From IMG/VR virus record IMGVR_UViG_3300006928_000001, positions 1 to 64,000 of that record: a stretch of DNA of 64,000 bases; one strand, given 5' to 3'. Source of the DNA: a virus. The translations under genes were made by a program, and so were the position numbers. Shown piece by piece: positions 2,152-40,083 of this stretch. Each line of letters starts with the position of its first letter. Within the stretch, counting starts at the first letter, position 1. The notes beneath the pieces are model-generated. The model worked only from the letters and a program-made list of their open reading frames with translations. It searched no databases and was not told where the DNA came from.

Positions 2152-3573
2152 CTATCCAGGTCGCCCGATAAGAACATCATTGAAGTTTACGATCTCATCG
2201 ATAAGAACTGCCATCCATGTATCGTGGTACTTAATCGTTGTAGCAACCTGCTGTGCTACGCGCCTGTACGCAGGATGGCCCTGTGGAGTAGTGCGCAGAC
2301 CGAGAAGATGTACCAATTCACGTACATTGACCTTCCAAAGTACCTTGACCATTGTTGCCATTGGGCATGCATACTCTAGTGCATCAGACCCGAAGTCACG
2401 CAACTTTTCCATCCGCGTATCAGACGCCTTAAGTGCAATCTCCCGTTCACGAAACACATCAATTAGTCTCGGCTCTTGAATCGGAGACCTGAAGATTGGA
2501 TCACACCCGTATCCTCCTACAGGGTCGATATACGAACACAGTTGAGTCATCATTCTATGGCGCCCGAGATCACGATGAATAGCGATTGGCATGATCACTT
2601 CAAACCAGTACTCAGCTAGTTCAGCATCTCTAGCTGGTACCTGATGGTGTCCTCTATCATGCGTCCATCGACGCACAAGATCAAGACAATTTACTCCAGT
2701 GACTTGTTCAACCAACGGCCAATCAGGGGATTTGAGTAGCTTTACCCGTGTATCGGTGCTGAAGCCACGCCCAGCATCGAACATCTTCATCCCTGGGAGC
2801 TTGAACTTAGGACTGCAGCCAGTACTCAACGGGGTGGCAAGTACAGGGAAAACTTCAGTCGCAACGTTGGACAGGTCATGAGCTAGAGCGACGATCTCTC
2901 CATGATCATCTTCTTTTCGCTTTTGCATCATCTCCTTGAAACCAGTAATGCTCGTAGAGATACCGAAACTTGTCTTTACAGACATAGGTAGTACATCACG
3001 TACCATGTCAAGACCACGTTTCTCAGTCGCATTCAGCCACCCCTTTTCGTTCTTAAACAGGTCTTGCTTATCAAACGGGAGAATGGCTCGTACAGCTTCT
3101 ACAGCTTTAGGTACAAGCAGGGTGTAGTCACGAATCAACTGTTCACAGTGATTTTGATAAGCAGTAACTCCATACATTTCTGGTGGAGTAACGAAACCAG
3201 CCTCGGAAAAGTTAACGTAACGAGTACTCTTTGAGGTTGCCGCGATAAGCCGTGCTTCAGTGAAATCACGCTCAGCAACCGCACTAGCTCCTTCTACGGC
3301 GAAATGGATAACAGCATGATCACTGACAGATTTATGACCATAGCCGATAGTTACTCGCTTATGAAACTCTCGTGCTTTTTCACTCGCGTTTTGCGCCAAC
3401 TCGGGCGGGTCAAGATGACCAGTATCAATCATGGACTGCAGTGTATCGCGTAAATTCTTCGGGTTGCGAGAAAATTTACCGAACAGCATAGCTACAACGT
3501 CTTCAGGCAGTCCTGAAACGATTTTCACGGTGTGGTCTGAGCTACTATGGATATAGTCTTCGGCCTTACGCAT
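2152..3573 (-). CDS. thyX: FAD-dependent thymidylate synthase, tandem two-domain form
   Basis: GYGHKSVSDHA and STRYVNF in domain 1; HRDLGRHRMM in domain 2; 473 aa. Confidence 0.85.
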   Translation of the reverse strand: MRKAEDYIHSSSDHTVKIVSGLPEDVVAMLFGKFSRNPKNLRDTLQSMIDTGHLDPPELAQNASEKAREFHKRVTIGYGHKSVSDHAVIHFAVEGASAVAERDFTEARLIAATSKSTRYVNFSEAGFVTPPEMYGVTAYQNHCEQLIRDYTLLVPKAVEAVRAILPFDKQDLFKNEKGWLNATEKRGLDMVRDVLPMSVKTSFGISTSITGFKEMMQKRKEDDHGEIVALAHDLSNVATEVFPVLATPLSTGCSPKFKLPGMKMFDAGRGFSTDTRVKLLKSPDWPLVEQVTGVNCLDLVRRWTHDRGHHQVPARDAELAEYWFEVIMPIAIHRDLGRHRMMTQLCSYIDPVGGYGCDPIFRSPIQEPRLIDVFREREIALKASDTRMEKLRDFGSDALEYACPMATMVKVLWKVNVRELVHLLGLRTTPQGHPAYRRVAQQVATTIKYHDTWMAVLIDEIVNFNDVLIGRPG

Positions 3574-21743: not shown

Positions 21744-22126
21744 GACAACTTCCAGTCACAATCCCTGTTTGAACAGTACCTATTGCCCGATGTAGAATAG
21801 ACTTCATGACCACACATGGGGCATGGATACTTTACAACGTAAGGTTCCTGTTGATACATCTGTACGAACGCATCATTTGCCTCAAACAACGTTGGTAGCT
21901 TCATCCCGTTGATACTAGCGCCAGGAACCATCACAGGCAGGATCATCTTATCGAACCATGCCAGTAGCTTTTGACGCTGAACTTCAGTCATCTCTTCGTC
22001 AGGACCTATATCATCACAGATGAGTGTGTGAAACCGCTGCCCGATCAGAGGGTTGTGTTGCATCGGCTTGATGACTACTACGTTATCAGGGTCGTTAGTT
22101 ATGACTAGTAGTTTGTTCTTTTTCAT
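21740..22126 (-). CDS. Small protein with a terminase Walker-B-like segment and C-terminal Zn ribbon
   Basis: GQRFHTLICDD...RQKLLAWFDKMILP; CPMC...C....C. Confidence 0.55.
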   Translation of the reverse strand: MKKNKLLVITNDPDNVVVIKPMQHNPLIGQRFHTLICDDIGPDEEMTEVQRQKLLAWFDKMILPVMVPGASINGMKLPTLFEANDAFVQMYQQEPYVVKYPCPMCGHEVYSTSGNRYCSNRDCDWKLS

Positions 22127-25745: not shown

Positions 25746-26390
25746 TTACCTGTTGACAACGCTCATAGCGATTTCCATAATGTAGTCTTCGCGAGTCGGT
25801 AGTGGAGGCACTTTTCCATACATACAGCTAATCCATTGATCAAGACAAGCTTTTACCATACGTTCAAACGCCCGATGATACGCGAGACTCTGTTGTCGTG
25901 CAGGGTCATCTCCAACATTAATGAACGCGTCCATACTACAGAACAAAACCAAGTCATACCGTAGCATATGCTTTGCGGCGTTAAGCTCGAACTCGTCACT
26001 CAGTGAGTATGGAGCGTGCATAGCAGTATAGCAATAATCGTCGATAGTAGTTCTATCGGTGATGAACCTGTCGTGGTTATTTTCCCACTCGATTTTTTCA
26101 GTTTGTAGACGCCGCTGAAACATAGTTCGACACGTGTTACCCTTAGAGCCATAGTTGTTGTAGTCAGACACCGCCGCCTGTGCCGCTAGGTCAGGAGTTA
26201 GTCCTTCTAAAACTGCGGCGTTATACGCAGGTTGGTTAGCAAGATCAACGTCGTACGGATTAGTAAAACCGAGAACTTCGGCGGTGCTACGTGACCCCAC
26301 CGGGTTAATTGGCACATGAAATCGCTCAGACAACATCCGAGCAATCGTGGTCTTTCCAGTTCCGCTAGGTCCACACAGTCCGATTCTCAT
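25746..26390 (-). CDS. P-loop nucleotide kinase (AAA_28/NadR-like)
   Basis: IGLCGPSGTGKTT, FITDRTTID, YDLVLF, DDPAR. Confidence 0.8.
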   Translation of the reverse strand: MRIGLCGPSGTGKTTIARMLSERFHVPINPVGSRSTAEVLGFTNPYDVDLANQPAYNAAVLEGLTPDLAAQAAVSDYNNYGSKGNTCRTMFQRRLQTEKIEWENNHDRFITDRTTIDDYCYTAMHAPYSLSDEFELNAAKHMLRYDLVLFCSMDAFINVGDDPARQQSLAYHRAFERMVKACLDQWISCMYGKVPPLPTREDYIMEIAMSVVNR

Positions 26391-26959
26391 TTCGGTTCTC
26401 CTCTGTACTTGTTCGGATAGTAGTGTTGACCCATGACCTTGAGAGCAGACGTGATCTCTTCTTCGGTCACGAGTTTCAAGTCCTTGGCTTCTTCATCGGA
26501 CATAGGAGTCAAAAGCTGTTCGCGAGCGTTGGTATACTTATCAATACGTATTTTCGCTTCAGCCGCGATCTTAGTACTCACAGAGTCTTCATCTTCGTGA
26601 TAATCACCCATGAAAATGACGTGCTTAATACCAGCCGAAGCAATCAGCTTCAGACAGGTAGGGCATGGATGCGTCGTCACAAAGATTGTGCAGCCATCTG
26701 TACTCTGTCCACCTAGTGCAGCCTGAGCAATAGCGTTTGACTCAGCGTGTACAGTACGGACGCAGTGTCCGTCGTGCATCAGATGGCCAACGTCGTCACA
26801 GTGCGGTGCTCCAGGTAGAGAGCCGTTGTATCCAGTGGCCACGATGTGACGACGCGAATTGATGATCACACACCCAACTTGACGACGGTTACACGTGGCT
26901 CTAGTCGCTACCATTTGAGCGATAGTCATAAAGTAGTCATGCCATGCTGGTCTACTCAT
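26387..26959 (-). CDS. dCMP deaminase
   Basis: RATCNRRQVGCVI, TGYNG, HAESNAI, PCPTC. Confidence 0.95.
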   Translation of the reverse strand: MSRPAWHDYFMTIAQMVATRATCNRRQVGCVIINSRRHIVATGYNGSLPGAPHCDDVGHLMHDGHCVRTVHAESNAIAQAALGGQSTDGCTIFVTTHPCPTCLKLIASAGIKHVIFMGDYHEDEDSVSTKIAAEAKIRIDKYTNAREQLLTPMSDEEAKDLKLVTEEEITSALKVMGQHYYPNKYRGEPK

Positions 26960-27414
26960 CGTTCACCACCACTAGTACTAGCGACGTATGAAGCGATTGC
27001 TCGCTCTCTGTCCGTCATCTTTTTGCCTTGTGAAACTCGTCGCATGATCGGTGGCCAGAACACGTCAACAAACCATTCAGGAGGACTGCCGGTAAGTAGT
27101 ACCTGGTCAACATGGCTAACGATATCCCAGTCAGTAACGTTTCCAGTTACCTTTGCAGGCCTTTCCTCTACCGATACGAAGAGAGGTTTGTCATCATCCA
27201 ATCTAGCATTACTTACGATAGCTGCTACTTCTTCATCGGTAACACCAACCTTCTTTGAAAGCCCCATCATAACACGAGATAGCACTAGCAGAGTATTCTT
27301 AGCGTCGGCCACGCGTTTAACATGAGACTTTTCTACGATACCAGGGTAATGCTTGTGCATGACTTCACCTAACCCAATTAGCAACTTACGTAGATCAGGG
27401 GTTGACTCAGACAT
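26956..27414 (-). CDS. Hypothetical protein
   Basis: 152 aa, coupled to neighbours. Confidence 0.65.
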   Translation of the reverse strand: MSESTPDLRKLLIGLGEVMHKHYPGIVEKSHVKRVADAKNTLLVLSRVMMGLSKKVGVTDEEVAAIVSNARLDDDKPLFVSVEERPAKVTGNVTDWDIVSHVDQVLLTGSPPEWFVDVFWPPIMRRVSQGKKMTDRERAIASYVASTSGGER

Positions 27415-27811
27415 AGCAGCCCATTAGTCGCAAGAAGTTGTCCTCACCTTCACAGACACAAACGTATTCTTCAGACGCTTCGTTAAACGGGTCCGCTGGA
27501 ATCCAAACCTTGAGACGACCGCCACCAACTGTGTCAGTTACCACATACGCGCTACTACCGGCTCTTTTTCGGATAGCTTTGATGTGATGATCTTGAGCAC
27601 CGGATAGCTTCAGCGACTTGTACGTGCGCTCTGACATGGTGCCCTTGGTCGAATCGACCTTGAACTCCATCATGATCACACGGTTAGTAACTATCATGGC
27701 GTCCGGTATACCTCGTGTAAAGCTATCGGATAACTTTACGAAATGTGCGCCATTACGCTTTAGTAGGTCCTTGATCCGGTTAGTGACAATCGTCTCAGGG
27801 TTCTTAGACAT
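27407..27811 (-). CDS. VRR-NUC / Holliday junction resolvase-like PD-(D/E)XK nuclease
   Basis: E...., GIPD, MEFK, LS..Q pattern; start MSKNPE at 27811. Confidence 0.8.
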   Translation of the reverse strand: MSKNPETIVTNRIKDLLKRNGAHFVKLSDSFTRGIPDAMIVTNRVIMMEFKVDSTKGTMSERTYKSLKLSGAQDHHIKAIRKRAGSSAYVVTDTVGGGRLKVWIPADPFNEASEEYVCVCEGEDNFLRLMGCYV

Positions 27812-28157
27812 CGACTGCGTTAACCTTGCGATCACGAAGACTATCAATCGCTTCCTGGTACTTATCCAAATCTTCGTCGGTGAAGTCTTCCGGTTCAAGA
27901 CCAGTTAGCAAAATCTCGATGAGCTTGCTAATGTTATCACGAACAATCATGATACCCTTGCGCCCGTGTACTGGTGGCTCAGTGACACCGTCTCGATACC
28001 AAAACTCACGGATATCAACGTACCGACCAGGCTTAGCATTCTTCCTGGCCGAGAAGATCTTGGTAAGAACACGCTGCTCAGTTCTAGCTGACTTAGGAAT
28101 GACTCCAATCACTTGCTCATCATCAGACAAAACAGAATCGTTACGAGCTCCAGGCAT
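27804..28157 (-). CDS. PC4/YdbC-family ssDNA-binding protein
   Basis: YVDIREFWY...GRKGIMI signature. Confidence 0.75.
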   Translation of the reverse strand: MPGARNDSVLSDDEQVIGVIPKSARTEQRVLTKIFSARKNAKPGRYVDIREFWYRDGVTEPPVHGRKGIMIVRDNISKLIEILLTGLEPEDFTDEDLDKYQEAIDSLRDRKVNAVDV

Positions 28158-28181
28158 TTTTCCCCTCTCTTCATTGGTTAG

Positions 28182-30608
28182 TTAAGCGGCGATATCGACG
28201 GCCTTAACGTCGCTAACGCCATCCCAAGACTTGGGCCCGCGCTCAGACGAACTGGCAAGCGGAACCTTAAGTCCAAAGAACGCAGTCATACACGACCGAA
28301 TACACCAATCAGTATGTGGTGTGTCAAGCTCTTCCTTAATCTCGTTCATCAATTCATCATGGATACAAGTGAGCACCCGTGCGTCAGTAGGGATGCGGCG
28401 ACGAATGATTGGATGAATCTCAGTGGCGTTGAATGCCTTACTCGCAAACATTTGACACGTGCGAACAAATCCAACCTTAAAGGCAGAAGCAGCCCAGCCC
28501 TGGATGAGACGGTTGAGACCAACGTACGCCTTACTGATAGGCAGATAGTACCTTCTACCGAATGGGTCAAAGACAAATCCACGCTGTCGAAGTGCCTTTT
28601 TGATGTTATCCTGAACCTGCTTGATTTCAGGTAGGCGACCGTGGTATTCACGCATGTACTGGTAACTTTGTGCCTTGGTCCAACCCTGGCCTCTAGCCAG
28701 CTTCTTTTGACCCATGCCGTATAGAATACCGAAGTTAATACCCTTGGCAGACTTGCGGTCCATACCAATTTCGTCAGCGACTCCTTGGTGAGCATCAAAC
28801 GGATTTTCTTCCATGGATAGATGACGTCGCCAATCAACATCGTACTTCGACTTGTCTGGCAATTCACCTGTTTCCATGTAGTCTCTAATGTACTTCAATT
28901 CGTCTGAGACTTGGTCATCCTGCATCGGAGTTCCGTACCCGTCACAGAACAGAGTTGCTCCTGTGTAGTGGGCAAATCCACGTAGCTCAACCTGACTGAG
29001 GTCCAGTAGCCTCATCATATGACCGGGCCTAGAGATGAACAGTGAGCGTACTGAAAAGTCTACAACTGGAGACCCGGGTTCAAGCTTCAATACCTTGGCT
29101 TCATCACCCTCTTTACACTTCGACATTACCATAACGTTCTTAGTGTACTCGTATTCACGAGGTGACAAGAACGCTTCGAGGATTCTAAATAGCAGATCAG
29201 CATTGACCAGCATCTTAAACCGCTTCGGTACCTGCTGCGCATTATAGTCAGCAGAACTCATACGTCCAGAAACAGTCCCAACTGTTCTTAGCCGATGAAA
29301 CATCAAATCTACCCAGTCGTCAACTACTGGGTAGTTAAACCATGGGTCAGGGCAGGCTTTAGCACCGAATGTCTCGGCGCGCTCATTAAACCACGCCAAA
29401 GCAGTGTTGCACTTTCGATAGACCTGAAGCATGAACATGAGGTCTTCATGTTCTGGATGTTGTTCGCCATAATGTTGAAGAGCATCAACATCAAGTGACA
29501 TGTAATCGATGATCGACTTATCACCGTATCCAGCCATAATCTTGACTTGGTCACGCTCTCTCATTTTCTTGAATGCATCAGTGGTATGCATCATGGACGG
29601 TTTAAAACCGAAGTCTTTGTTACGGAAGAGAATACCACGAAGCTGCTGGTTACTGCCAGGGTTCAACGTCGGCATCTTAAGGTAAGACCTTACCCAACGT
29701 GTAGCGACAGCTTGGAGAGTCGTAGCTGCTACCGTCTGACGTTCTGCCAAGTTGCGGTCATACCTAGTACCACGCATACCGGCAATGGTAGCTTGGATAG
29801 CTGACTCGATTTCTAGTTCGTATAGGTCAAGGCGGTATCGACGGTCAGGACCCCTGTACCACCACCATCGTGTGGGCGCTTGATAAATCCACTTGTACCA
29901 CTTGAGGAAAATCAATAGCGTGTCTGCAGCATCGTCCTGCGCGTAAAGACCAGCCAATGGAACTGGCGCGCGCCAAATGTCTGCGCCTGGCTTGAACTTA
30001 TGGTCTTTCAGCCAACGATCCATATCATTCTTGGTATCCAAATCACGACCAAGAACATCTTTCTGGAGGGGCTTAAGACCAATGAGCTCATTCCAACCAA
30101 CGCCCTTGTTTAGAACACGAGCCGCGATTTGAATGTCGTGCAGCTGACCTTCCAATGGCCAAACTATATTCTCGGCTAGCATGAAACCAAGCTCCATGCT
30201 AAGATTGTGTACTACAACCAATTTGTCTTTTGGTCTTTCTTTCATCCACTCGGAGAAGGATTGAATGACCTCCTTAGACGACGGCTGTATACCTCCAGCA
30301 AAGCGTTGATCATGCCGAATGCCAATGTATGCAGATTTCACTTTGCCGAGATCTTCATCTAGCCAAGCGATAGCGATCCCAGCTATTTTTGCGCCAAACT
30401 CGGGCCTAAGGGCTGAGGGGTATGCCTTGTTGACCTTCTTACCGATCTTCTTTGGTGCTAAGTCGATAGTACGACCATTTGGTTTGGTCTCAAAGTCGAA
30501 CCCAACGAACCGCGCCTTCATGGCTTCGGCAAGAATCAGGTCCCAATGCTCTATCGTCCAACATGTGGTGTAAAGGTCGATAGTGCGGTCAATAGACGGT
30601 TGAATCAT
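28182..30608 (-). CDS. polA: DNA polymerase family A with 3'-5' exonuclease
   Basis: DFET, HN..E, YAQDD exonuclease motifs; TVSGRMSS, DLSQVELR, KGINFGILYG, NRLIQG, IHDEL. Confidence 0.95.
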   Translation of the reverse strand: MIQPSIDRTIDLYTTCWTIEHWDLILAEAMKARFVGFDFETKPNGRTIDLAPKKIGKKVNKAYPSALRPEFGAKIAGIAIAWLDEDLGKVKSAYIGIRHDQRFAGGIQPSSKEVIQSFSEWMKERPKDKLVVVHNLSMELGFMLAENIVWPLEGQLHDIQIAARVLNKGVGWNELIGLKPLQKDVLGRDLDTKNDMDRWLKDHKFKPGADIWRAPVPLAGLYAQDDAADTLLIFLKWYKWIYQAPTRWWWYRGPDRRYRLDLYELEIESAIQATIAGMRGTRYDRNLAERQTVAATTLQAVATRWVRSYLKMPTLNPGSNQQLRGILFRNKDFGFKPSMMHTTDAFKKMRERDQVKIMAGYGDKSIIDYMSLDVDALQHYGEQHPEHEDLMFMLQVYRKCNTALAWFNERAETFGAKACPDPWFNYPVVDDWVDLMFHRLRTVGTVSGRMSSADYNAQQVPKRFKMLVNADLLFRILEAFLSPREYEYTKNVMVMSKCKEGDEAKVLKLEPGSPVVDFSVRSLFISRPGHMMRLLDLSQVELRGFAHYTGATLFCDGYGTPMQDDQVSDELKYIRDYMETGELPDKSKYDVDWRRHLSMEENPFDAHQGVADEIGMDRKSAKGINFGILYGMGQKKLARGQGWTKAQSYQYMREYHGRLPEIKQVQDNIKKALRQRGFVFDPFGRRYYLPISKAYVGLNRLIQGWAASAFKVGFVRTCQMFASKAFNATEIHPIIRRRIPTDARVLTCIHDELMNEIKEELDTPHTDWCIRSCMTAFFGLKVPLASSSERGPKSWDGVSDVKAVDIAA

Positions 30609-31567
30609 CGAAGATTAGCCTTCATCAGTCTGTCGTATTCTGGCCACAAATGTCTATCTCGGTTGATAGCGCCAATGAAAGGCTTTAGCCCATCATTTCC
30701 GTACGGGCAGTCACCAGTAAGAATCATCTGCCATACGTTCTTAAGCCTTCTCGTAGTATCAGCATGAAAGATGCTTTTAAAGCTCGGCAGTTCAGGTACT
30801 AGAACCTCAGGAATGTTAATCCTGCGACTGTAAATCGCATCAGCGTCGTCGAAGTTAGTACCATACAGATGGAGATTACTCAACACATGATTATACACGC
30901 CAGGCTCTAGTTCAAGCATAGACGCAACAACCCGTTGTACCGTTGTAAACGACAGTACGTCATACGGCATGCCGAGCCAAACATCGTGACTTCGCATGAA
31001 CACAGTCAGATTCAACTTGCCGTTACGAATAGTAAAGTGCCAAGCAACCGTACACGGAATGTCCTTGGATCGCCAGGAGTTTCCGTCCCATTCTGGCTGT
31101 TGAGGATCGTTGCTGGAAACAACACCAGCTGACTTCAGTGTTGGATAATCATCCTGACCTTCGTGCGGATGAGGATACCCGTTAAACGGACCAACTTGAG
31201 GTCTCCAAGTAGTTACTATAGCTTGACGGCTATCAGGATCGCGTTGAAGGGTCGCGACAACGTGATTGATCTGGCCCATAAGACGTGGCCCATAAGCTCC
31301 CCACAGAACTTTACCGTCATCACTAAACTGTGCCATGACCTTGTTGTAGTCACTGATGACTTTGACGTCATCGGACCCAGCAAGAATCCAAGCAGCTTCA
31401 GCAAAGCCAAAACGATAGTTCACCCGTCGGATTGGATCTAGGATGAAAGGCTTATGAACGTCAGTTAGCTGAAGAGTGACAGGCCACGGAACCTCATACA
31501 CTAGGTTACCACGTGGCGCTGACTCAACTCCATGCAACAAACATAATGAAAGGGCGTACCTCCACAT
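30605..31567 (-). CDS. ThyA-fold pyrimidine nucleotide (hydroxy)methyltransferase, Asp-type (dCMP-directed candidate)
   Basis: GAYGPR, DSRQA, DIPC (catalytic Cys), MRSHD..LGMPYD, NLHLY. Asp replaces the ThyA Asn177. Start placed at ATG 31567. Confidence 0.85.
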   Translation of the reverse strand: MWRYALSLCLLHGVESAPRGNLVYEVPWPVTLQLTDVHKPFILDPIRRVNYRFGFAEAAWILAGSDDVKVISDYNKVMAQFSDDGKVLWGAYGPRLMGQINHVVATLQRDPDSRQAIVTTWRPQVGPFNGYPHPHEGQDDYPTLKSAGVVSSNDPQQPEWDGNSWRSKDIPCTVAWHFTIRNGKLNLTVFMRSHDVWLGMPYDVLSFTTVQRVVASMLELEPGVYNHVLSNLHLYGTNFDDADAIYSRRINIPEVLVPELPSFKSIFHADTTRRLKNVWQMILTGDCPYGNDGLKPFIGAINRDRHLWPEYDRLMKANLR

Positions 31568-31608
31568 GGAGTCGCCTGTTTTGAAAGTAGGGACCCCGAA
31601 TGAAGGGT

Positions 31609-31962
31609 TTACTGTTTCTGAGACTCGCTGGAAGCTGCCTTTGAGGAGGTCTTCGACCGAGACTTTGAAAGCTGCTTCGAGGCTACGGTCTTGGATTCGA
31701 CCTTGGGTTCGGCCGAGGGTGCGATGGGCGGTGGCGCATGTTGGTGCCGACCGTACACTCTCCGGAAAATTCTCAAACTCTTCGAGAGTCCCGGATCGGC
31801 CTGAATCAAGGAGAGCCCTTCTCGGTGAAACTTGATGGTCTTCGTCTTTGGCGTCAACTTCAGTGTATCGTCCGTCAGGCGGTTCCACGCCTCCAGAAGG
31901 TTGTGAAATGTCTTCTGATTGCGCTCCGGCATCCGGAAGATGATGTCCGCCTGGAATTCCAT
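31609..31962 (-). CDS. Small basic hypothetical protein
   Basis: AAGGAG SD, G/C-ending codons, Ser/Lys-rich tail. Confidence 0.7.
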   Translation of the reverse strand: MEFQADIIFRMPERNQKTFHNLLEAWNRLTDDTLKLTPKTKTIKFHREGLSLIQADPGLSKSLRIFRRVYGRHQHAPPPIAPSAEPKVESKTVASKQLSKSRSKTSSKAASSESQKQ

Positions 31963-32016
31963 GACTATCTCCTTTGGACACAGTCTACCCCTTATCAGTC
32001 TAGTGAACCATGAGGT

Positions 32017-32577
32017 TCAGTTCGTCTGGTCTCGAAATGAAGAGAGGATTGTCTTAGCCATCCAAGATGGATATCCCCTCATGTCTTGAGTGTACCAGTA
32101 TGGTGAGATAGCCCCTAACCGACTTAGGTCACCACAGCAACGCATGAAACCACTTGCGATGGGACCTGCATGGGACATACCTGCTCCAGACTTCTTGTCT
32201 GGAATACCACCATCACGTTCAACTTGACGCTTGAGAATACTCAATAGCGGCAACCAACAGTGCACCAACTTTCCACCGTTGGCGACAATACGTTCATCGA
32301 TTTCACGCGCTTCGTTCATGGAGAGGTTAGACCCTCCTCGGAGAAGATTGGCGTATACGATCTCGCCAACGTGAAACCGATCGACTACTACTAGCGTACC
32401 AGTTTCTGAAATCTCGATGAGATCGTCAAGCATGATGTCGTAGTGCAGATATGGCGGAATATCAGTTGGTGGTGGGCCGTTGTTGATTCGTACAACTGGA
32501 CCGTCAAATTCTGCTTCAATAGCGTCAGCAAGGGTGGACTTACCGACGCCATCAGCTCCTTCCAGGAAGATCATCAC
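32017..32577 (-). CDS. dNMP (thymidylate-like) kinase
   Basis: IFLEGADGVGKST, VVDRFHVGEIVY. Confidence 0.85.
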   Translation of the reverse strand: MMIFLEGADGVGKSTLADAIEAEFDGPVVRINNGPPPTDIPPYLHYDIMLDDLIEISETGTLVVVDRFHVGEIVYANLLRGGSNLSMNEAREIDERIVANGGKLVHCWLPLLSILKRQVERDGGIPDKKSGAGMSHAGPIASGFMRCCGDLSRLGAISPYWYTQDMRGYPSWMAKTILSSFRDQTN

Positions 32578-32582
32578 TAGCT

Positions 32583-32750
32583 TTAGCTCTCAAAAGAGAG
32601 AGCAGAGACCATGCCGAGCACTGAAATTCCGGTAATAGTAACTACCGTGCTAGTATCACCGCCAAGTGATACTGCGTAAAACGCCCCACCAGAGATAACA
32701 ACGATACCAAGTACCCCAAGGGCCATCAAAATGGTACTTTTATTCATCAT
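32583..32750 (-). CDS. 55-aa protein with two transmembrane segments
   Basis: Hand-translated MMNKSTILMALGVLGIVVISGGAFYAVSLGGDTSTVVTITGISVLGMVSALSFES; fills the intergenic gap. Confidence 0.6.
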   Translation of the reverse strand: MMNKSTILMALGVLGIVVISGGAFYAVSLGGDTSTVVTITGISVLGMVSALSFES

Positions 32751-32753
32751 CTT

Positions 32754-32972
32754 TTACTCCTGCGCTTGTTCAACAGCAGTCTCAAGATAAGCCTTGGCTG
32801 CGATGAACTCTTCACTACTGGTATGGGCGTCTAGGTACGTTGCGAGATTATCGTACAATTCTGGCTGTTCGTCACTATTAGTAATATGGTACTGCGTAAT
32901 CATAGCCATCAACTTCGGTTTATTTTCCGTGTCAGCGAAGTGATCTACAATCGACTGCATCAACGGAGTCAT
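32754..32972 (-). CDS. Hypothetical protein
   Basis: 72 aa, coupled to the methyltransferase gene. Confidence 0.65.
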   Translation of the reverse strand: MTPLMQSIVDHFADTENKPKLMAMITQYHITNSDEQPELYDNLATYLDAHTSSEEFIAAKAYLETAVEQAQE

Positions 32973-33907
32973 CCTGCAATCTCCTTGGCGTCAGCTGGAA
33001 CACGAACCTTCCAGGCAATGTTGCGAGCCGCCTCGGGATGCATGGCACTGAACACACACGACAAAGTGTGTGGACTATGGTAGTTAGCCAGACGATTCCA
33101 GATTTCAATCTCCTTATCATCCATAGCACGAAAAAGATTACGAAGATTACTGAATGTCCCGTACTCTTCCATCACCTCACATCCGCGCTTTTCAAAAGCA
33201 CGACGTAGTTCAGACCGCTGCCATTCATAGATGTGGTTCTTGGCGATGAATCCGCCATTGACTGGCGTAGACAACAGAATCATCCCATCTGCACCATCCT
33301 CGCGCTCAGGCTTGCGGCGCGCATAACGAACCATTCCATCTAGGAATCGCTCGCCGTCAGGCTTGTCCATGTGCTCAAGTACTTCAAAGGAAATGACGAC
33401 GTCAAACGTCCAATCAGGAACTTTCTCCGGCTCGTCAACAGCATTCGTCTTACTGAGAATCTTGGTCTCAATGCCGGAAACGCGTGGACGGTACTTGATT
33501 TGATTCAGGTCTACGGCGCAATACTGCGAAGGCTTGTAGTGCTTAACGGCGCTATGGTCGCAGGTAAGCGTACGGAACAGAGGAATTTCTTTGCCACATC
33601 CCATTTCCATGATTCGAACGCCGGCTCCAAAGTGTTCCTTAACGACCTTCATCGGAAAACCATACCTGATTGCGTGAGCTAGGTAGTCACGTCCAATACG
33701 GTATGCCTTCTCAGGGGAAAGATGAGACTTATCGAACCGATTATCATCGGATCGTTCAGTTGGTGCAGCCCGGCTATGCGTCTTCTGTTCAAAGTACGGC
33801 TCAGCTTCCTTTACCGGCAGCCAATTATGCTCACCATCATCACCAGGCTCTGCCTCTCGGCGAAACTGACCGGTTCGAAGACAAACAAATCCTACGACGT
33901 CACTCAT
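32969..33907 (-). CDS. Class I SAM-dependent methyltransferase
   Basis: IMEMGCG, AVD, FDVVISFEVLEHM, LSTP, NHIYEW. Confidence 0.85.
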   Translation of the reverse strand: MSDVVGFVCLRTGQFRREAEPGDDGEHNWLPVKEAEPYFEQKTHSRAAPTERSDDNRFDKSHLSPEKAYRIGRDYLAHAIRYGFPMKVVKEHFGAGVRIMEMGCGKEIPLFRTLTCDHSAVKHYKPSQYCAVDLNQIKYRPRVSGIETKILSKTNAVDEPEKVPDWTFDVVISFEVLEHMDKPDGERFLDGMVRYARRKPEREDGADGMILLSTPVNGGFIAKNHIYEWQRSELRRAFEKRGCEVMEEYGTFSNLRNLFRAMDDKEIEIWNRLANYHSPHTLSCVFSAMHPEAARNIAWKVRVPADAKEIAG

Positions 33908-33975
33908 AACGCTTTCCCCTCTCTGTGATTGTTACTGTGGTAAAGTACCACTAAGGTGAAGTGCTCACCACTTCG

Positions 33976-35766
33976 CTAGTTCGCTGGTGGGCGCTCTTGC
34001 GAAGATTCTTCGTCATCAGAATTCATCTGATCGATCTTACTGTTGACGGCGTCAAGGGCTTCTTGAGCCTGATTCTTGAATTCGCTGACATCAAAATCGT
34101 CTGGCAACTTAACGCTAAAGAGCTTCGCCATCATCTCTGGGTTCTCAGCATTCAGAATCGCTTCGACAACCATAAGTGGAACGTCACCCCACCAAAGATC
34201 AGTAGGCTTGTAGTCTCCACCAGTTGCGCTAGAGAACACGCGAGCAGCCTGATTGATGGACACACCGCCAAGCTGACCAGTAACACTGGTAATACCAGCA
34301 GCGGGTTCATTGTCTCCCCACTCTGGAGATTCGATTACGATCTTCCACTTAGTGATACCCATCTCGATAAGAACACGGTCTAGAAACGCCATACGTTCTT
34401 CGTGGTGCGGTCCAAACCTCAAGCGATTTACTACTGCCCATGCTGCTGATGCCGTGGCAAAATTGTACGAGTCAGACCGTCCAAGTAGAACAGCTGGAAT
34501 ACGTTCTGCTTCAGAGAACCTTGCGGCTAGACTATCCTGTAGTCCTGATTGGTCAAGAAGCTCCTTAGGTAGCTTGGTACTTAGCTCATGGAGCACAAGC
34601 TTGCCACGGTCATCACTGTTGTTACCAAATGGCAACTGACCATTCATATTTGCAGCAGAATCAGATGGCATCAGTGATAGAGTAATCAGTGATGCAAGCC
34701 CTTCACGGCCGCGACCAAGTGTATCGATCTTACTTACTGCAGAATTTGCTACAGCATCATCAAACGGGCGGTTAGCCGCGGCAAGGATTACACTGTGTAG
34801 ACCGGACTTGAGGTAGCTAAGCACGAGCTTAACATGCTCTTCAGCAGCAGTAGCCGCGTTCATTTCAGAATGCCACCCACTCCATCCGTACGGGTATGCT
34901 CCAGGAAACGACGTGCGCCAAGCCATAACTTCAGTCGCGGGTGTAGCACCCTTGGGTAGGGCTCCCGGCTTGTACTCTCCAGGTTGACCTGGCTTAAGAG
35001 ACGGTCGATGTCTATTACCGGTAGAGTATTTTCCGGTCTTAGCGTCCATTGCACGCCAATCACCGTATTCCTTGAACCAACGAGATCTACCACCGGACAG
35101 GGAGACCTTAAGCCGTCTAAAATGCCGTGGTTCTTCAATCCAGTAAATCGTACCGTCTTCAAGAGCTACTGGAACAGGAACCTTTGTTGCTGCTTGGTCT
35201 GGCTTGGACCATTCGGCATTAACAGCTTCAAACCTAGCGAATCCACGTGGCTTGGTAGGCATCGTCTGCTTAGCCTTACCCACGTAGGTTTCGCGGATGA
35301 CTACCACGCCACCCCAACCGAGGATTACGCGATCAAGCTCTTGTTCCTTGAAGCCAGCACGCAGTGACTTAGCACCACGTCCCAAGAAACCAGTTTGAAC
35401 AAGTACCTGAAGCCGGTTACGTTCTTCACGTACTTCCGGCTTCCAAGTCTTAGGCTTATCAAGATCGAATTTATCATCCTCCATCATGTTTACGTCAAAT
35501 CGCGGTTGTACCGAGTAGTGTGTTCCAGCACAACCTTCAGCGACGACGTGACAGACAGCCATCAGAGCACCGTTCTGCTTAACCGCATGCAGAACTAGCT
35601 TTGGATCAATTGGCTTACGAGTCATTGCTCCAGTAAACATCTGATTGATGTCGCCTGGCTCAGAACCGGGAAGTTCACCCGGCCGATACTGCAGATTGAT
35701 GCTCTGCGAGCCGAGAATTACCGCGGCTTCAGAGGCGACGTAATCAGGCATTGATCGATTCTCCAC
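33976..35766 (-). CDS. Portal protein (PBSX/XkdE-like)
   Basis: 596 aa; WFKEYGD, YPYG.SGW, RIPAVLLG....NFATA, SINQAAR motifs. Confidence 0.75.
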   Translation of the reverse strand: MENRSMPDYVASEAAVILGSQSINLQYRPGELPGSEPGDINQMFTGAMTRKPIDPKLVLHAVKQNGALMAVCHVVAEGCAGTHYSVQPRFDVNMMEDDKFDLDKPKTWKPEVREERNRLQVLVQTGFLGRGAKSLRAGFKEQELDRVILGWGGVVVIRETYVGKAKQTMPTKPRGFARFEAVNAEWSKPDQAATKVPVPVALEDGTIYWIEEPRHFRRLKVSLSGGRSRWFKEYGDWRAMDAKTGKYSTGNRHRPSLKPGQPGEYKPGALPKGATPATEVMAWRTSFPGAYPYGWSGWHSEMNAATAAEEHVKLVLSYLKSGLHSVILAAANRPFDDAVANSAVSKIDTLGRGREGLASLITLSLMPSDSAANMNGQLPFGNNSDDRGKLVLHELSTKLPKELLDQSGLQDSLAARFSEAERIPAVLLGRSDSYNFATASAAWAVVNRLRFGPHHEERMAFLDRVLIEMGITKWKIVIESPEWGDNEPAAGITSVTGQLGGVSINQAARVFSSATGGDYKPTDLWWGDVPLMVVEAILNAENPEMMAKLFSVKLPDDFDVSEFKNQAQEALDAVNSKIDQMNSDDEESSQERPPAN

Positions 35767-36991
35767 GACGGGCGGTAATCAGCTTCATCGCAGCGATGAT
35801 ATCACCGTTACCAATCCGTTCGGTATCAGCAAGGTTCAATGCCGCGGCAATAAGCCCTCGCAGATCGTCATAAGACCAGTTGCTAGAACTGCGGACGACA
35901 CTCTGTAGAGTTCCATCGTCAACGTCGTCTTCAACCAATTGACGCTTAAGGTACTTCATACGTAGGTCAGGGCCAGGAAGCGGGACTTCCAAAATCATAT
36001 CAAAGCGACGGCGCATCGGACCATTAAATGGTTCCGTGCTATTGGACGTGACTACGAAGATAAGTCCATCCGTACTACCCATTCCACTAAGCGCAGTTAG
36101 TAGAGTGTGTCCAGTAATTCCAGTTCTGTTTTCAGAAGCAAGAACCTTTTCGAAGTCATCTAGAATTACTACAGCCGGGCCCTTACGCTGTGCCCAACTA
36201 AGAAAGTTCTTGAATGTACGACCGTCAGCGTATCGATCAGTGAAGTCAAAAGACACTGGTGTAAGACCGAGTTCAGTTGCCATCCATCGTGCTAGAGACG
36301 TCTTGCCAGTCCCAGCTGGACCGTTGAACAAATACTTACGGGTCCATGGCAACCGACGCTTCTGAAAGGACTCCTTCTTATCGAGAAATCCCTTAACGTC
36401 GTTAACGATAGATGTTTTTACGTAGTCATCCATGATAATGTCGTTAAGGGTCATTGGACTGATACGCTCAGCCCCACCGTTATAGACTTCCATCATCATG
36501 TTGGCTTGACTGATGAATCTAGTTGCCGTGTCAGCAGCGTTGACGAGTCTCATCCATGGTTCGATAGCCGTTTTTGGAATCAGAGCAACGTGCTCATTCC
36601 ATTCTTCTCCAGTACGCATCATTTGATGCCTAACCGGAACGATATAACCTACTGGGCCTTCGTTAGCATTGTGCTGAGCGAACCTCAACTTCATCGCCGC
36701 GCCATCGACTACAGGATGTACCCCACGGAACGAAATTCCTGGAGACTCTAGATGGCTAACGGATACTGCACCACTCAGCTGAGTGAAGATCATCTTCGCT
36801 TCTTCAGGTGTACCAAGAAGCCCGCTAAGATCGCTAGAAGCGACCAGCCAGTATACAAGCTGATCAACTCCACCCTTAAAAACGATGTGACTAGAATCCA
36901 TAACGGCAGGAAGGCCGAGACTTTGAAGCATCTGCTGCAAAGACTCTCGATGCAACCAATTACGCTTTTGAGTTACAGACGGGTACATCAA
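35744..36991 (-). CDS. AAA+ ATPase
   Basis: YLFNGPAGTGKTS, VILDD, TSN sensor, RRRFD. Confidence 0.9.
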   Translation of the reverse strand: MMYPSVTQKRNWLHRESLQQMLQSLGLPAVMDSSHIVFKGGVDQLVYWLVASSDLSGLLGTPEEAKMIFTQLSGAVSVSHLESPGISFRGVHPVVDGAAMKLRFAQHNANEGPVGYIVPVRHQMMRTGEEWNEHVALIPKTAIEPWMRLVNAADTATRFISQANMMMEVYNGGAERISPMTLNDIIMDDYVKTSIVNDVKGFLDKKESFQKRRLPWTRKYLFNGPAGTGKTSLARWMATELGLTPVSFDFTDRYADGRTFKNFLSWAQRKGPAVVILDDFEKVLASENRTGITGHTLLTALSGMGSTDGLIFVVTSNSTEPFNGPMRRRFDMILEVPLPGPDLRMKYLKRQLVEDDVDDGTLQSVVRSSSNWSYDDLRGLIAAALNLADTERIGNGDIIAAMKLITARRGESINA

Positions 36992-37046
36992 GAACCTCCT
37001 CGACTACTCTGTCAGGTTACCACATTCGAACTAGTTCGTCCAGCTC

Positions 37047-38006
37047 TCACGGCTTCGTACCATCTCGCTTGCACAAGCGATAAAACGGGCAACGCTCACA
37101 TACAGACGGGTCGTCAGTTGCTTCAAACTTATCACGGATAGGGATGTTTTGGTCTAGATCACCATCTTTCAAGCGATCGGCCAGATCTTCGGCAAAGAGA
37201 TCGATGATCATCCCAGTTTTTTCGATGTCTTCATCGGTGATGCGAAAATGATCTACTTGCACGTTTTCTTGACTGATGTATGGAATTACAGAATGGACGG
37301 ATGACCATCCAAGACCGTTAGCCCACATTCCGTACAGTTTAGCTTGTAGTTTGTCTTTCTTACGCTTGCGGCCAGTCTTCCAATCCACTACTATGACAGA
37401 GTTATCACTACCACGAATAACCAAGTCCATAGCTACCCAGACTCGTAACCCTGACCTTCGAAAAGACATCAAATCTTCGACCATAACTATTTGCCTGTAG
37501 TTATTGATCGCGTGTCGCAATATGTTCCTAGTCTCATTACCAGTATCGGCTTTGTACCAGGAGTTATCCTTCGCTAAAGAGTGTAATTTTTGCTGTATCC
37601 GCAGCCAGACATTCTCCCAATTTACCGGTTCGCCGTCAATAATTTCTGATAGCTGTAGCCTATGCTTCGGATTGCCAGAGTGTTGATTTAGAGCTTGGTC
37701 TTGCCCACGTGCGAACATACTTCGTGCGTGGGCAAGCATCACCGGTTCTATGTCACTAAACTTACGGCCTTGCCTAGCTTGATCGAGGATATGCTGTGCA
37801 GCCTTATGGATGATTTTTCCTGACCATGATGGTATCGTCTCAATAAACTTAGCCTCGTAGTTCTCCTCAGCTGTTCTGTCAGATGGAGGCTTATTACCAC
37901 GCCACCACCCACCCCATGAAGCATAAGTCCACCGATAGTATTTCAGTGGACACTCTGCAATCATCGTTGCTTTAGAGAATGAAAACGATGCTTCGTTCTT
38001 AAACAC
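37047..38006 (-). CDS. Cas4/RecB-like PD-(D/E)XK exonuclease
   Basis: SFS....CPLKYY, G..IH, MDLV, VDWKTG, Q..LY, C..C.F...C. Confidence 0.85.
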   Translation of the reverse strand: MFKNEASFSFSKATMIAECPLKYYRWTYASWGGWWRGNKPPSDRTAEENYEAKFIETIPSWSGKIIHKAAQHILDQARQGRKFSDIEPVMLAHARSMFARGQDQALNQHSGNPKHRLQLSEIIDGEPVNWENVWLRIQQKLHSLAKDNSWYKADTGNETRNILRHAINNYRQIVMVEDLMSFRRSGLRVWVAMDLVIRGSDNSVIVVDWKTGRKRKKDKLQAKLYGMWANGLGWSSVHSVIPYISQENVQVDHFRITDEDIEKTGMIIDLFAEDLADRLKDGDLDQNIPIRDKFEATDDPSVCERCPFYRLCKRDGTKP

Positions 38007-39295
38007 TATGCAGCCTCAGACTCGCTAAGTGGCATCTTGATATCGGGGTGCCGCTTAGCCCACCAGGCTTGACGCTCCTTTAGAGACATCTTAAGCGAGA
38101 GACGTTCTCCACGACTACGCCAGTCAATCGCCTGCATCCAAGAGTTACGGTGACTTGGCTCACCAGTTAAAGCCGGAACGGTTCGTACTCCTCGTCTAAT
38201 ACCATCTGCCAAGACTCTACCCAAAAATGCGGCATTATGCGTACACAGCCCGCGACCAATTTCGGCATACGCCTTAGACTTTGGTGAGAACTCGTAGTCA
38301 AGCGGAAACCCCATGATGGTTGCACACTCACGCGGCGTGAGATACCTGTCTTCTACTGGGTGGATGACGGTATGGCCGCCTAGAATATTCGGTGATGGTC
38401 GATCAAGGCGACCACGGGTGTGCGTGAATCCCGGCCTAGAAGAACCATTCCATTTTGCGCCACGAGGCCGATAATGCTTATGCATCAATTCATCTGCCAC
38501 TTCACGTAGATGTGATCCTGGAGGGCAGTACGGCATAATGGACCTGAACGCACCAAAGTAGGTATTCTTGTTGTTAGGAAGATCACCACCGTTTTTTACG
38601 AGCTCTAGTGCGTCTCCAAGAGTCTTGGAACCAAGATTGTCTGCAGATTCGTTATTGTAAACGCCACGCCAATCTAGATCGTATTTACTAGCTACGAAAT
38701 GGAACCTTCGTCGATCTTGGTATCCACCATGAATAGCGGATGTCGTTAGAAACGCATAACACCTGTATCCAAGGGATCTTGCTCTAAAGGCCATCGCGTC
38801 TAGAAAGCTACGTTCCTTGCTAAAGATTGCTGGAACTAGCTCCCAAGTCCAGATGTCTGGCTGAAGACGGAATGCTGCCTCGTACGCTACGTACCGTGTG
38901 TAGCACATTCTGTCATCACTAGATCCTTCGTGCTTCCCAGGCCCAGCATAGGCTACACACGGCGGATTCGCATAGAAAATACGAGGTACATTACCCGCAC
39001 TCTTTAGCTCATCAATGAATGACAACCAATCTTCTCCGTTAGTGGACCTGTTAAGATACCCGTCTTTGAGAGGGATATTAGCAACCGGCCAACGTTGGCG
39101 TGACACGTTGCTACCTAAGTCTAGATCAGGTAGCTCTAGATGACCAGCAACGTTAATTCCAGCCTGCTCCATACCAAGACTGAAAGCTCCAGCAAAAACG
39201 CATGCACCCAGAGCAGTGACTTCGTTACGCCCAGCTTCTAGTTCAGCATGAATTGCGTCCATTTGTTCGCGGTTAGACAATGGAAGATACGACAT
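38006..39295 (-). CDS. Divergent DNA (cytosine-5) methyltransferase-like protein
   Basis: VFAGAFSLG (motif I), NPPC (IV), WELVP (VI), QDRRR (VIII), RYLTPRECATIMGFP (IX). Confidence 0.85.
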   Translation of the reverse strand: MSYLPLSNREQMDAIHAELEAGRNEVTALGACVFAGAFSLGMEQAGINVAGHLELPDLDLGSNVSRQRWPVANIPLKDGYLNRSTNGEDWLSFIDELKSAGNVPRIFYANPPCVAYAGPGKHEGSSDDRMCYTRYVAYEAAFRLQPDIWTWELVPAIFSKERSFLDAMAFRARSLGYRCYAFLTTSAIHGGYQDRRRFHFVASKYDLDWRGVYNNESADNLGSKTLGDALELVKNGGDLPNNKNTYFGAFRSIMPYCPPGSHLREVADELMHKHYRPRGAKWNGSSRPGFTHTRGRLDRPSPNILGGHTVIHPVEDRYLTPRECATIMGFPLDYEFSPKSKAYAEIGRGLCTHNAAFLGRVLADGIRRGVRTVPALTGEPSHRNSWMQAIDWRSRGERLSLKMSLKERQAWWAKRHPDIKMPLSESEAA

Positions 39296-40083
39296 TAGTA
39301 GCCATCCTTCTGACGCTTGAAGTTAATGTCGTTCTTATGCATGAACGCGTAGTATAGATGGTCAAGTTTAACGCCTGGAATAGCCTGTGCGCAGGCACAG
39401 ATTTCAGGCATCAGCGTAAAGTAAATGAACCCAGATCCGGGTGGAAACTTGTGAGGATTTACAGCACCATTACTAACAAGAATCTGTTGGCGAATAGCCG
39501 CTGCAGTATCAACAAGTAGCTGACGTAGATAGTTAATCCTGGCCGCTACCTTTTTCTCCCAATCCTCGCCATGTGCTCCGTCAGCATGACTGAACATACT
39601 ATAGATTGCAAGGTTCGGACCCTGTCCATTACGTTCAGCCAGAGCCCAAGCAAAGTCAAGACCAAACGCAGGTACCTGCACTTGCATGGCGCTAGCTGTA
39701 ACTTTTGCCACAAGCTCCCGCTCAGGTTGTCCGCCCATGAAAAGATATGCGTTGACGACGAAGTGCATCACGTCGACAAGCTCCATGAGCAACTCATCTT
39801 TGTCGGCTTGAACAGGGTTAGACTTATGGTGCTTCCATCCACCTTCCACCATGTCCCAAGCTTCACTAGCCTCTTGGACACCCATATCAAGATGGTGGAT
39901 AACCCTACGTGGAAGGCAGAACGTCTTCTTGCCGAAGTCTTTCAGCCTGGAATCGTATGACCCAACCAGAGTCTGAAAATCCATCTGTCGCTTAATGATT
40001 TTTGCCTGGTGATCAATCGACCAGTCAAGTTCATCAAATTCGGTGTCGATGGAGAATTCATCGGCACAGTTCTGCACTTTCAT
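39295..40083 (-). CDS. Dimeric all-alpha dUTPase/dCTPase
   Basis: QEASE, WKHHK, ELVDVMHF, KNDINFKRQKDGY. Confidence 0.85.
   Translation of the reverse strand: MKVQNCADEFSIDTEFDELDWSIDHQAKIIKRQMDFQTLVGSYDSRLKDFGKKTFCLPRRVIHHLDMGVQEASEAWDMVEGGWKHHKSNPVQADKDELLMELVDVMHFVVNAYLFMGGQPERELVAKVTASAMQVQVPAFGLDFAWALAERNGQGPNLAIYSMFSHADGAHGEDWEKKVAARINYLRQLLVDTAAAIRQQILVSNGAVNPHKFPPGSGFIYFTLMPEICACAQAIPGVKLDHLYYAFMHKNDINFKRQKDGY

Follow-up and report, generated by a model that had tools for sequence, protein, structure and literature searches.

Predicted cytosine hydroxymethylation and candidate non-glycosyl tailoring around an Asp-type ThyA homologue in an uncultured phage

The window analysed here is the first 64 kb of IMG/VR record IMGVR_UViG_3300006928_000001, a complete genome of 107,823 bp from an uncultured phage. 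The system in question lies between positions 25,746 and 40,083, where a homologue of thymidylate synthase (ThyA) with Asp at the substrate-recognising position 177 is accompanied by kinases, a pyrophosphatase, a deoxycytidine monophosphate (dCMP) deaminase and two methyltransferase-like enzymes. These genes are read as a T4-like pathway that would replace deoxycytidine before replication by 5-hydroxymethylcytosine (5hmC), to which two transferase families would add a second layer, giving a non-glycosyl 5hmC derivative; a probability of roughly 0.55 is assigned to this reading. The final base is probably an undescribed non-sugar derivative of 5hmC, because two methyltransferase-like enzymes accompany the pathway across many phages that are unrelated to one another, some of which encode the two as a single fused protein. 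The 5hmC derivatives known so far from phage DNA comprise sugars and a single carbamate.

Gene identities were taken from Pfam, PHROG and NCBIfam scans, and related loci were surveyed by scanning IMG/VR and GTDB contigs. The scans found the genes named in an earlier sequence-only reading of this DNA at their expected places on the minus strand (Table 1).

The ThyA-fold enzyme and the pre-replicative gene set

The ThyA gene product, 320 amino acids long (the exact product is on record as P0002), was aligned with E. coli ThyA, T4 gp42 and the ThyA of phage PaMx74. It contains the motif MRSHDVWLGMPYD, the last Asp of which falls on Asn177 of E. coli ThyA, as had been noticed earlier, and it keeps the catalytic residues Cys146, Glu58, Tyr94, His207 and Tyr209 in the alignment columns. 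Asp143, Cys146, Thr147, Met165, Ser167, Asp169, Asp177 and Arg126 make up a signature that is the same as in T4 gp42 and MilA; this gp42-type signature, including Asp177, is common to all of the 120 best ThyA homologues. The acidic residue 143 lies in KDIPC, against ALAPC of the reference, with Asp in the Leu143 column, and Asp169 is retained within MRSHD. Among solved structures, MilA, a CMP hydroxymethylase, is the nearest relative (E 2.7e-25).

The meaning of positions 143, 169 and 177 has been described previously (PMC13326640, PMC8670742). Position 143 is acidic in T4 gp42, MilA and the 5-hydroxy-dCMP synthases and hydrophobic or other in methyl formers; an acidic residue there admits water, giving the hydroxymethyl product, and Asn in place of Asp169 is the mark of the flavin-type 5-hydroxy-dCMP synthases represented by RB69 gp48 (PMC13326640). 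Ser167 and Arg126 mark 2'-deoxyribose substrates (PMC5175136). These residues support an enzyme directed at cytosine and predict a dCMP hydroxymethylase making 5hm-dCMP. A 5-hydroxy-dCMP synthase of the RB69 gp48 type was ruled out by the retained Asp169, and CMP instead of dCMP was rejected as the substrate on Ser167 and Arg126. A related gene of Pseudoxanthomonas phage PW916 (L009:3280-4098, plus strand) is annotated as deoxyuridylate hydroxymethyltransferase; it has Asp177 and the full gp42-type signature, and its annotated substrate is probably wrong.

The sequence-only reading had proposed either 5-methyl- or 5-hydroxymethyl-dCMP as the product. Its direction towards cytosine stands with the gp42/MilA signature, and the 5-methyl product is unlikely because positions 143, 147 and 165 match T4 gp42 and MilA, not PaMx74. 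It is accordingly very improbable that the enzyme is a dCMP methylase of the Xp12/PaMx74 type and that the DNA carries 5-methylcytosine (5mC). Asp177 alone is compatible with such an activity, and many of the tested metavirome Asp177 enzymes make 5mdCMP (bioRxiv 10.1101/2024.12.05.627091). However, at positions 143, 147 and 165 the 5mC phage PaMx74 has Asn, Pro and Leu, against Asp, Thr and Met in both the window enzyme and T4 gp42, and the best solved relative is a hydroxymethylase. Besides, PaMx74 encodes dihydrofolate reductase, whereas none was found among the open reading frames (ORFs) scanned here, which cover about half of the genome and were not subjected to a search aimed at this enzyme.

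Together, the pyrophosphatase, hydroxymethylase, kinase, deaminase and ThyX support what would be a complete T4-style cytosine-replacement set. From family membership and diagnostic residues, the dimeric-dUTPase-family pyrophosphatase would convert dCTP (and dUTP) into monophosphates, the ThyA-fold enzyme would hydroxymethylate dCMP at C5, the thymidylate kinase-like (TMPK-like) enzyme would begin re-phosphorylation, and the phage PolA would incorporate 5hm-dCTP. The dCMP deaminase and ThyX would supply dTMP; as ThyX gives a separate dTMP route, the ThyA-fold enzyme would be freed for its own reaction. Both the T4-type triad of pyrophosphatase, hydroxymethylase and kinase and this dTMP supply had been proposed earlier, and residue signatures and gene content support them.

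The TMPK-like kinase, of 186 amino acids, resembles thymidylate kinases in its P-loop and DRF motif; YorR of SPbeta is its sole solved relative, and its homologues lie immediately upstream of ThyA in most related loci. Kinases of related siphovirus modules (L006:8004-8987, plus strand, which is gp29 of Stenotrophomonas phage AXL3, and L012:8818-9975, plus strand) have an extra 150-200 C-terminal amino acids that are lacking in the window kinase, and the AXL3 extension appears to contain motifs resembling family 4 uracil-DNA glycosylases. The pyrophosphatase shows a weak local match to T4 gp56, and as a dUTPase_2 protein it fills the role of the PRA-PH pyrophosphatases in related modules. The deaminase has its zinc motifs HAE and PCPTC intact, and of 84 related loci 79 have a dCMP deaminase close to ThyA. 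PolA adjoins ThyA in 66 of these 84 loci and here overlaps the ThyA stop by 4 nt. The separate ThyX that had been recognised earlier is indeed present, with two Thy1 domains and one RHR motif, in the second half only. For the second kinase (AAA_28), solved structures match the P-loop only and conservation was seen in relative L010 only; its part in the pathway is uncertain.

The absence of a glycosyltransferase, noted before for the window, held across the whole genome: no member of the GT1, GT2, T4 glucosyltransferase, carbamoyltransferase or TET families was matched in the 108 kb, although for the T4-type glucosyltransferase family PF09198 the test is weak, its control having matched nowhere either.

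Table 1. Predicted pathway genes, with positions in the window unless marked otherwise
Feature	Position	Strand	Basis
ThyA-fold enzyme, predicted dCMP hydroxymethylase (5hm-dCMP synthase)	30605..31567	-	PF00303, E 3.6e-22; signature residues
Class I SAM methyltransferase accompanying Asp-type ThyA	32969..33907	-	PF13489
C5-MTase-fold enzyme, NPPC lineage, paralogue 1	38006..39295	-	PF00145; NPPC, ELV, QxRxR, FAGAF, EIGRGL
C5-MTase-like paralogue 2	genome 78711-80513 (outside window)		
TMPK-like P-loop kinase, putative modified-dNMP kinase	32017..32577	-	PHROG 761 thymidylate kinase, E 1.6e-12
All-alpha (dimeric dUTPase family) NTP pyrophosphatase, putative dCTPase/dUTPase	39295..40083	-	PF08761 (dUTPase_2), E 3.7e-11; PHROG 173 NTP pyrophosphohydrolase
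dCMP deaminase	26387..26959	-	PF00383, E 2.3e-26
AAA_28 P-loop kinase, pathway role uncertain	25746..26390	-	PF13521, E 3.4e-12; PHROG 2107 thymidylate kinase
Tandem-domain ThyX, phage's own dTMP synthase	2152..3573	-	two PF02511 (Thy1) matches in one 473-amino-acid frame; TIGR02170
Family A DNA polymerase (PolA), translationally coupled to ThyA gene	28182..30608	-	PF00476

Two transferase families linked to the pathway

The class I methyltransferase dependent on S-adenosylmethionine (SAM) carries the usual SAM motifs and lacks the motif of DNA amino-methyltransferases. It belongs to a phage family that is nearly always found beside an Asp-type ThyA, and its family profile collects 291 cluster representatives at E <= 1e-30. 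In surveys seeded with the methyltransferase, ThyA lies 2-3 kb downstream in eight of the nine GTDB loci with enough flank and within 10 kb in 41 of 64 IMG/VR loci, while in the survey seeded with ThyA (84 loci) the methyltransferase is confined to a single branch of the ThyA tree, where 10 of 19 rows have it, against none of the 46 in the other branch. Orthologues of 53-80% identity are located on contigs that match in size those carrying ThyA orthologues. In the syntenic relative L010 (92 kb) the methyltransferase is the best-conserved gene of the block (72.5% identical), and the enzyme is better conserved than ThyA itself. It is homologous to gp31 of AXL3 (E 7e-24) and to a gene of a Manatee Spring phage, each of which sits in a module that also encodes a pyrophosphatase, a kinase, ThyA with Asp177 and a deaminase; AXL3 and PW916 are two cultured phages with the methyltransferase module. 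In siphovirus modules the methyltransferase gene is immediately preceded by one for a Lys/Ala-rich protein of about 220 amino acids with a composition like that of histone H1 (L012:6301-6963, plus strand, with homologues in L005, L006, L009, L011, L014 and L015). This low-complexity protein was rejected as an enzyme, and it has no homologue in the present genome.

The second family has the fold of DNA cytosine C5-methyltransferases (C5-MTases), which is clear in the AlphaFold2 model, and is represented by two paralogues, one of them outside the window. The enzyme keeps the catalytic Pro-Cys, the Glu of motif VI and the QxRxR of motif VIII, while its cofactor-facing motifs are changed to FAGAF, PCV, ELV and GR from the canonical FxGxG, PCQ, ENV and GN. 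The Asn of motif X (Asn304 of HhaI) is replaced by Arg (EIGRGL), as in 47 of 61 lineage members, and the catalytic motif NPPC is present in all 61. In the neighbourhoods of 60 IMG/VR relatives, ThyA is encountered within 10 kb in 50 cases at a median spacing of 3 kb, and Asp177 occurs in each of the 49 neighbouring ThyA sequences that cover the position. PRA-PH is found in 43 and dCMP deaminase in 40 of the 60 loci, and in many of the 60 two C5-MTase-like paralogues flank the pyrophosphatase.

The two families are also joined directly. An NPPC-type C5-MTase-like domain stands N-terminal to the methyltransferase in at least 20 of the best 150 cluster representatives, three further fusions show the reversed order, and both PF00145 and PF13489 were identified in eight of ten fusions scanned. 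As they are fused in other phages, the two families are taken as one functional unit. Two of the fusions, P0183 and P0200, contain an intein, itself carrying a LAGLIDADG endonuclease, that splits the C5-MTase-like domain. The earlier proposal that two methyltransferases belong to the pathway is thus strengthened by reciprocal gene-neighbourhood surveys and natural fusions. The class of ThyA with Asp177 and its pyrophosphatase/deaminase core are already published (PMC8670742); the tie of the NPPC lineage to the Asp-type ThyA and its fusion with the class I methyltransferase are new here and absent from the literature searched.

The same linkage bears on a simpler explanation, in which plain 5hmC is final, both transferases do other work (on host nucleic acid, on residual unmodified cytosines or on a small molecule), and they are linked to ThyA only through membership of a common early operon for nucleotide metabolism. 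The pre-replicative gene set is complete without the transferases, 46 related ThyA loci have no methyltransferase, and the methyltransferase, with DNA methyltransferase motifs lacking, has a fold of small-molecule type. This explanation is nevertheless considered unlikely, since the linkage is reciprocal and extends across unrelated phage backbones, the methyltransferase is conserved better than ThyA, and the two families have been fused repeatedly.

Candidate chemistry and likeness to known systems

In the preferred reading, the second layer would be laid on 5hmC by the class I methyltransferase and the two NPPC/Arg-type C5-MTase-fold paralogues, with a chemistry that is conjectural. Where the methyltransferase is present alone, the simplest product would be 5-methoxymethylcytosine, formed by O-methylation; the C5-MTase-like enzymes might then add a further step or a sequence-specific one. 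More specifically, and tentatively, the C5-MTase-fold enzymes may act on 5hmC in DNA and not on cytosine, with covalent attack at C6 activating or alkylating the 5-CH2OH group and the class I methyltransferase completing a two-step reaction. C5-methyltransferases can derivatise 5hmC in vitro, and the proposed activity would be a natural counterpart. If true, it would constitute a new enzymatic route to a new non-glycosyl hypermodified cytosine. Deamination of 5hm-dCMP, by which 5hmU would replace T and leave the C5 of cytosine free, was rejected, as this phage and AXL3 keep ThyX.

Several points weigh against this reading. A C5-MTase-fold enzyme normally requires a free C5, which full replacement by 5hmC would remove. 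The predicted fold of the class I methyltransferase (AlphaFold2 model, predicted local distance difference test score 90) matches generic small-molecule and tRNA methyltransferases (ChlM, CmoM, RebM) with no clear winner; its identification as CmoA or CmoM was rejected, profile comparisons giving about 5% probability for each and the fold ranks being generic. AXL3 and other complete genomes have the methyltransferase and no C5-MTase-like gene; therefore, one shared reaction scheme misfits some cases. For the first layer, the rule of residue 143 is a correlation, and the dCMP-methylase reference is a single sequence, PaMx74.

The CmoA/CmoX/CmoY system of Synechococcus phage S-B43, which makes 5-carboxymethylcytosine (PMC12783734, PDB 8YF3), likewise pairs a protein of class I methyltransferase fold with a C5-MTase-fold enzyme having Arg in motif X. 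By analogy, the C5-MTase-like enzymes could be CmoX-type carboxymethyltransferases using host carboxy-SAM, after which the class I methyltransferase would methyl-esterify the carboxyl, as CmoM and Trm9 do on tRNA. The outcome would be an ester of the 5-carboxymethyl type, borne either by cytosines left unreplaced or by the hydroxymethyl oxygen. The Arg in place of the motif X Asn resembles Arg350 of CmoX (PMC12783734), smaller residues occupy the place beside the catalytic Cys (PCA/PCV) and motif VI (ESV/ELV), CmoM ranks high in the fold comparison of the methyltransferase, and fusion would suit two consecutive steps. This route is nonetheless judged quite doubtful. CmoA was found neither in the phage genome nor in any of the 60 C5-MTase-like loci, although a host CmoA is possible, and CmoY is also lacking. 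The catalytic motif is NPPC and not the SPPC of CmoX; in Foldseek, CmoX (8YF3) ranks 21st, behind M.HaeIII and DNMT1-type enzymes, with close scores, and it is absent from the sequence matches. The class I partner has no specific similarity to CmoA and occurs without any C5-MTase-like gene, and free C5 should be scarce. The window lineage also differs from the S-B43 system in being tied to the Asp-type ThyA, on which the CmoX study is silent (PMC12783734).

The preferred reading, a T4-like replacement with a second layer, finds its closest model in the 5hmC pathway of T4 (dCTPase/dUTPase gp56, dCMP hydroxymethylase gp42, dNMP kinase gp1, dCMP deaminase cd, and td), which has the same logic and enzyme roles. 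Every diagnostic active-site residue of gp42 is shared by the window enzyme, and gp56 belongs to the same all-alpha superfamily as the window pyrophosphatase. In contrast to T4, the phage has no recognised alpha- or beta-glucosyltransferase, would obtain dTMP via ThyX and not via a td of ThyA type, possesses a TMPK-like kinase and not a gp1-like one, and has two extra transferase families attached. By sequence its hydroxymethylase is nearer to MilA than to gp42. MilA and BcmA, CMP hydroxymethylases of nucleoside-antibiotic pathways, are the closest solved relatives and have Asp at 143 and 177 as in the window enzyme. The bacimethrin pathway also pairs an enzyme of the CMP hydroxymethylase type with a SAM methyltransferase. 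Where MilA uses Ala176 and Lys133 for ribose, the window enzyme carries Ser167 and Arg126, the pair for deoxyribose (PMC5175136).

The MetaGPA core of ThyA(Asp177), PRA-PH and dCMP deaminase (PMC8670742) has the same hub enzyme and deaminase, and relatives of the window locus carry the exact trio. The window differs from it in a dUTPase_2-family pyrophosphatase in place of PRA-PH and in downstream partners, which are a class I methyltransferase and a C5-MTase-like enzyme and not a carbamoyltransferase; methyltransferases are not mentioned in the main text of that study (PMC8670742). AXL3 (gp27-gp31, gp50; PMC7504290) has the homologous methyltransferase, kinase, ThyA(Asp177) and dCMP deaminase and a separate ThyX, and differs from the window phage in being a siphovirus of 47 kb, in using a PRA-PH pyrophosphatase and in lacking any C5-MTase-like gene. 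Of 37 restriction enzymes tried on the DNA of this isolate, 35 failed to cut, and these comprised every tested enzyme whose site includes G/C; the AXL3 study calls gp28 an ordinary thymidylate synthase and leaves the modified base unnamed (PMC7504290).

Neighbouring genes and implications

The genome has a 123-bp terminal repeat, its minus strand carries genes from 2 kb to 64 kb, and megablast gave no DNA-level match among GenBank phages. From the class I methyltransferase through the kinase the genes are tightly packed or overlapping, as are the ThyA gene and PolA. Kinase and ThyA gene are parted by a gap of 449 nt containing a Lys/Ser-rich ORF of 117 amino acids (31609-31962, minus strand); a longer GTG frame for the ThyA gene, reaching 31981, overlaps this separate ORF and is probably an artefact. 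Between methyltransferase and kinase, L010 has an NDT/DNPH1-like ORF (L010:8378-8800, plus strand, frame 2), where the window has only an acidic ORF of 72 amino acids and a membrane-like one of 55.

Three bystander genes in the interval, encoding a portal-like protein of 596 amino acids, an AAA+ ATPase and a PD-(D/E)XK nuclease, are outside any base pathway. The 596-amino-acid protein (33976-35766, minus strand) has no Pfam match and is portal-like by an Atlas feature score of 0.97 and a structural TM score of 0.65; it was rejected as a modification enzyme, and its gene is located within the replication/nucleotide block, distant from the late genes. At 22123-24747 (minus strand) a single chain of 874 amino acids combines a GHKL ATPase with a Toprim domain of Topo VI-A/Spo11 type, with 65% identity in L010. 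Ten more early ORFs at 64-74 kb gave no Pfam matches. Genome-wide, GATC is the sole strongly avoided 4-mer palindrome (observed/expected 0.67, z -11.7), and GGCC, CCGG, CGCG and GCGC are near expectation (G/C 4-mers about 1.0). These palindrome statistics fit protected cytosines weakly and are not decisive.

The locus points to a widespread, unstudied tailoring unit on the standard dCMP-hydroxymethylase pathway, and it raises a sharp biochemical question, namely what the fold of a DNA C5-methyltransferase does when C5 is already substituted. The question of tailoring is open to testing, as the methyltransferase module is available in culture with AXL3 and PW916. A new base, if true, would be relevant to phage resistance to restriction and type IV systems, and its pathway would be a possible source of new DNA-labelling enzymes.

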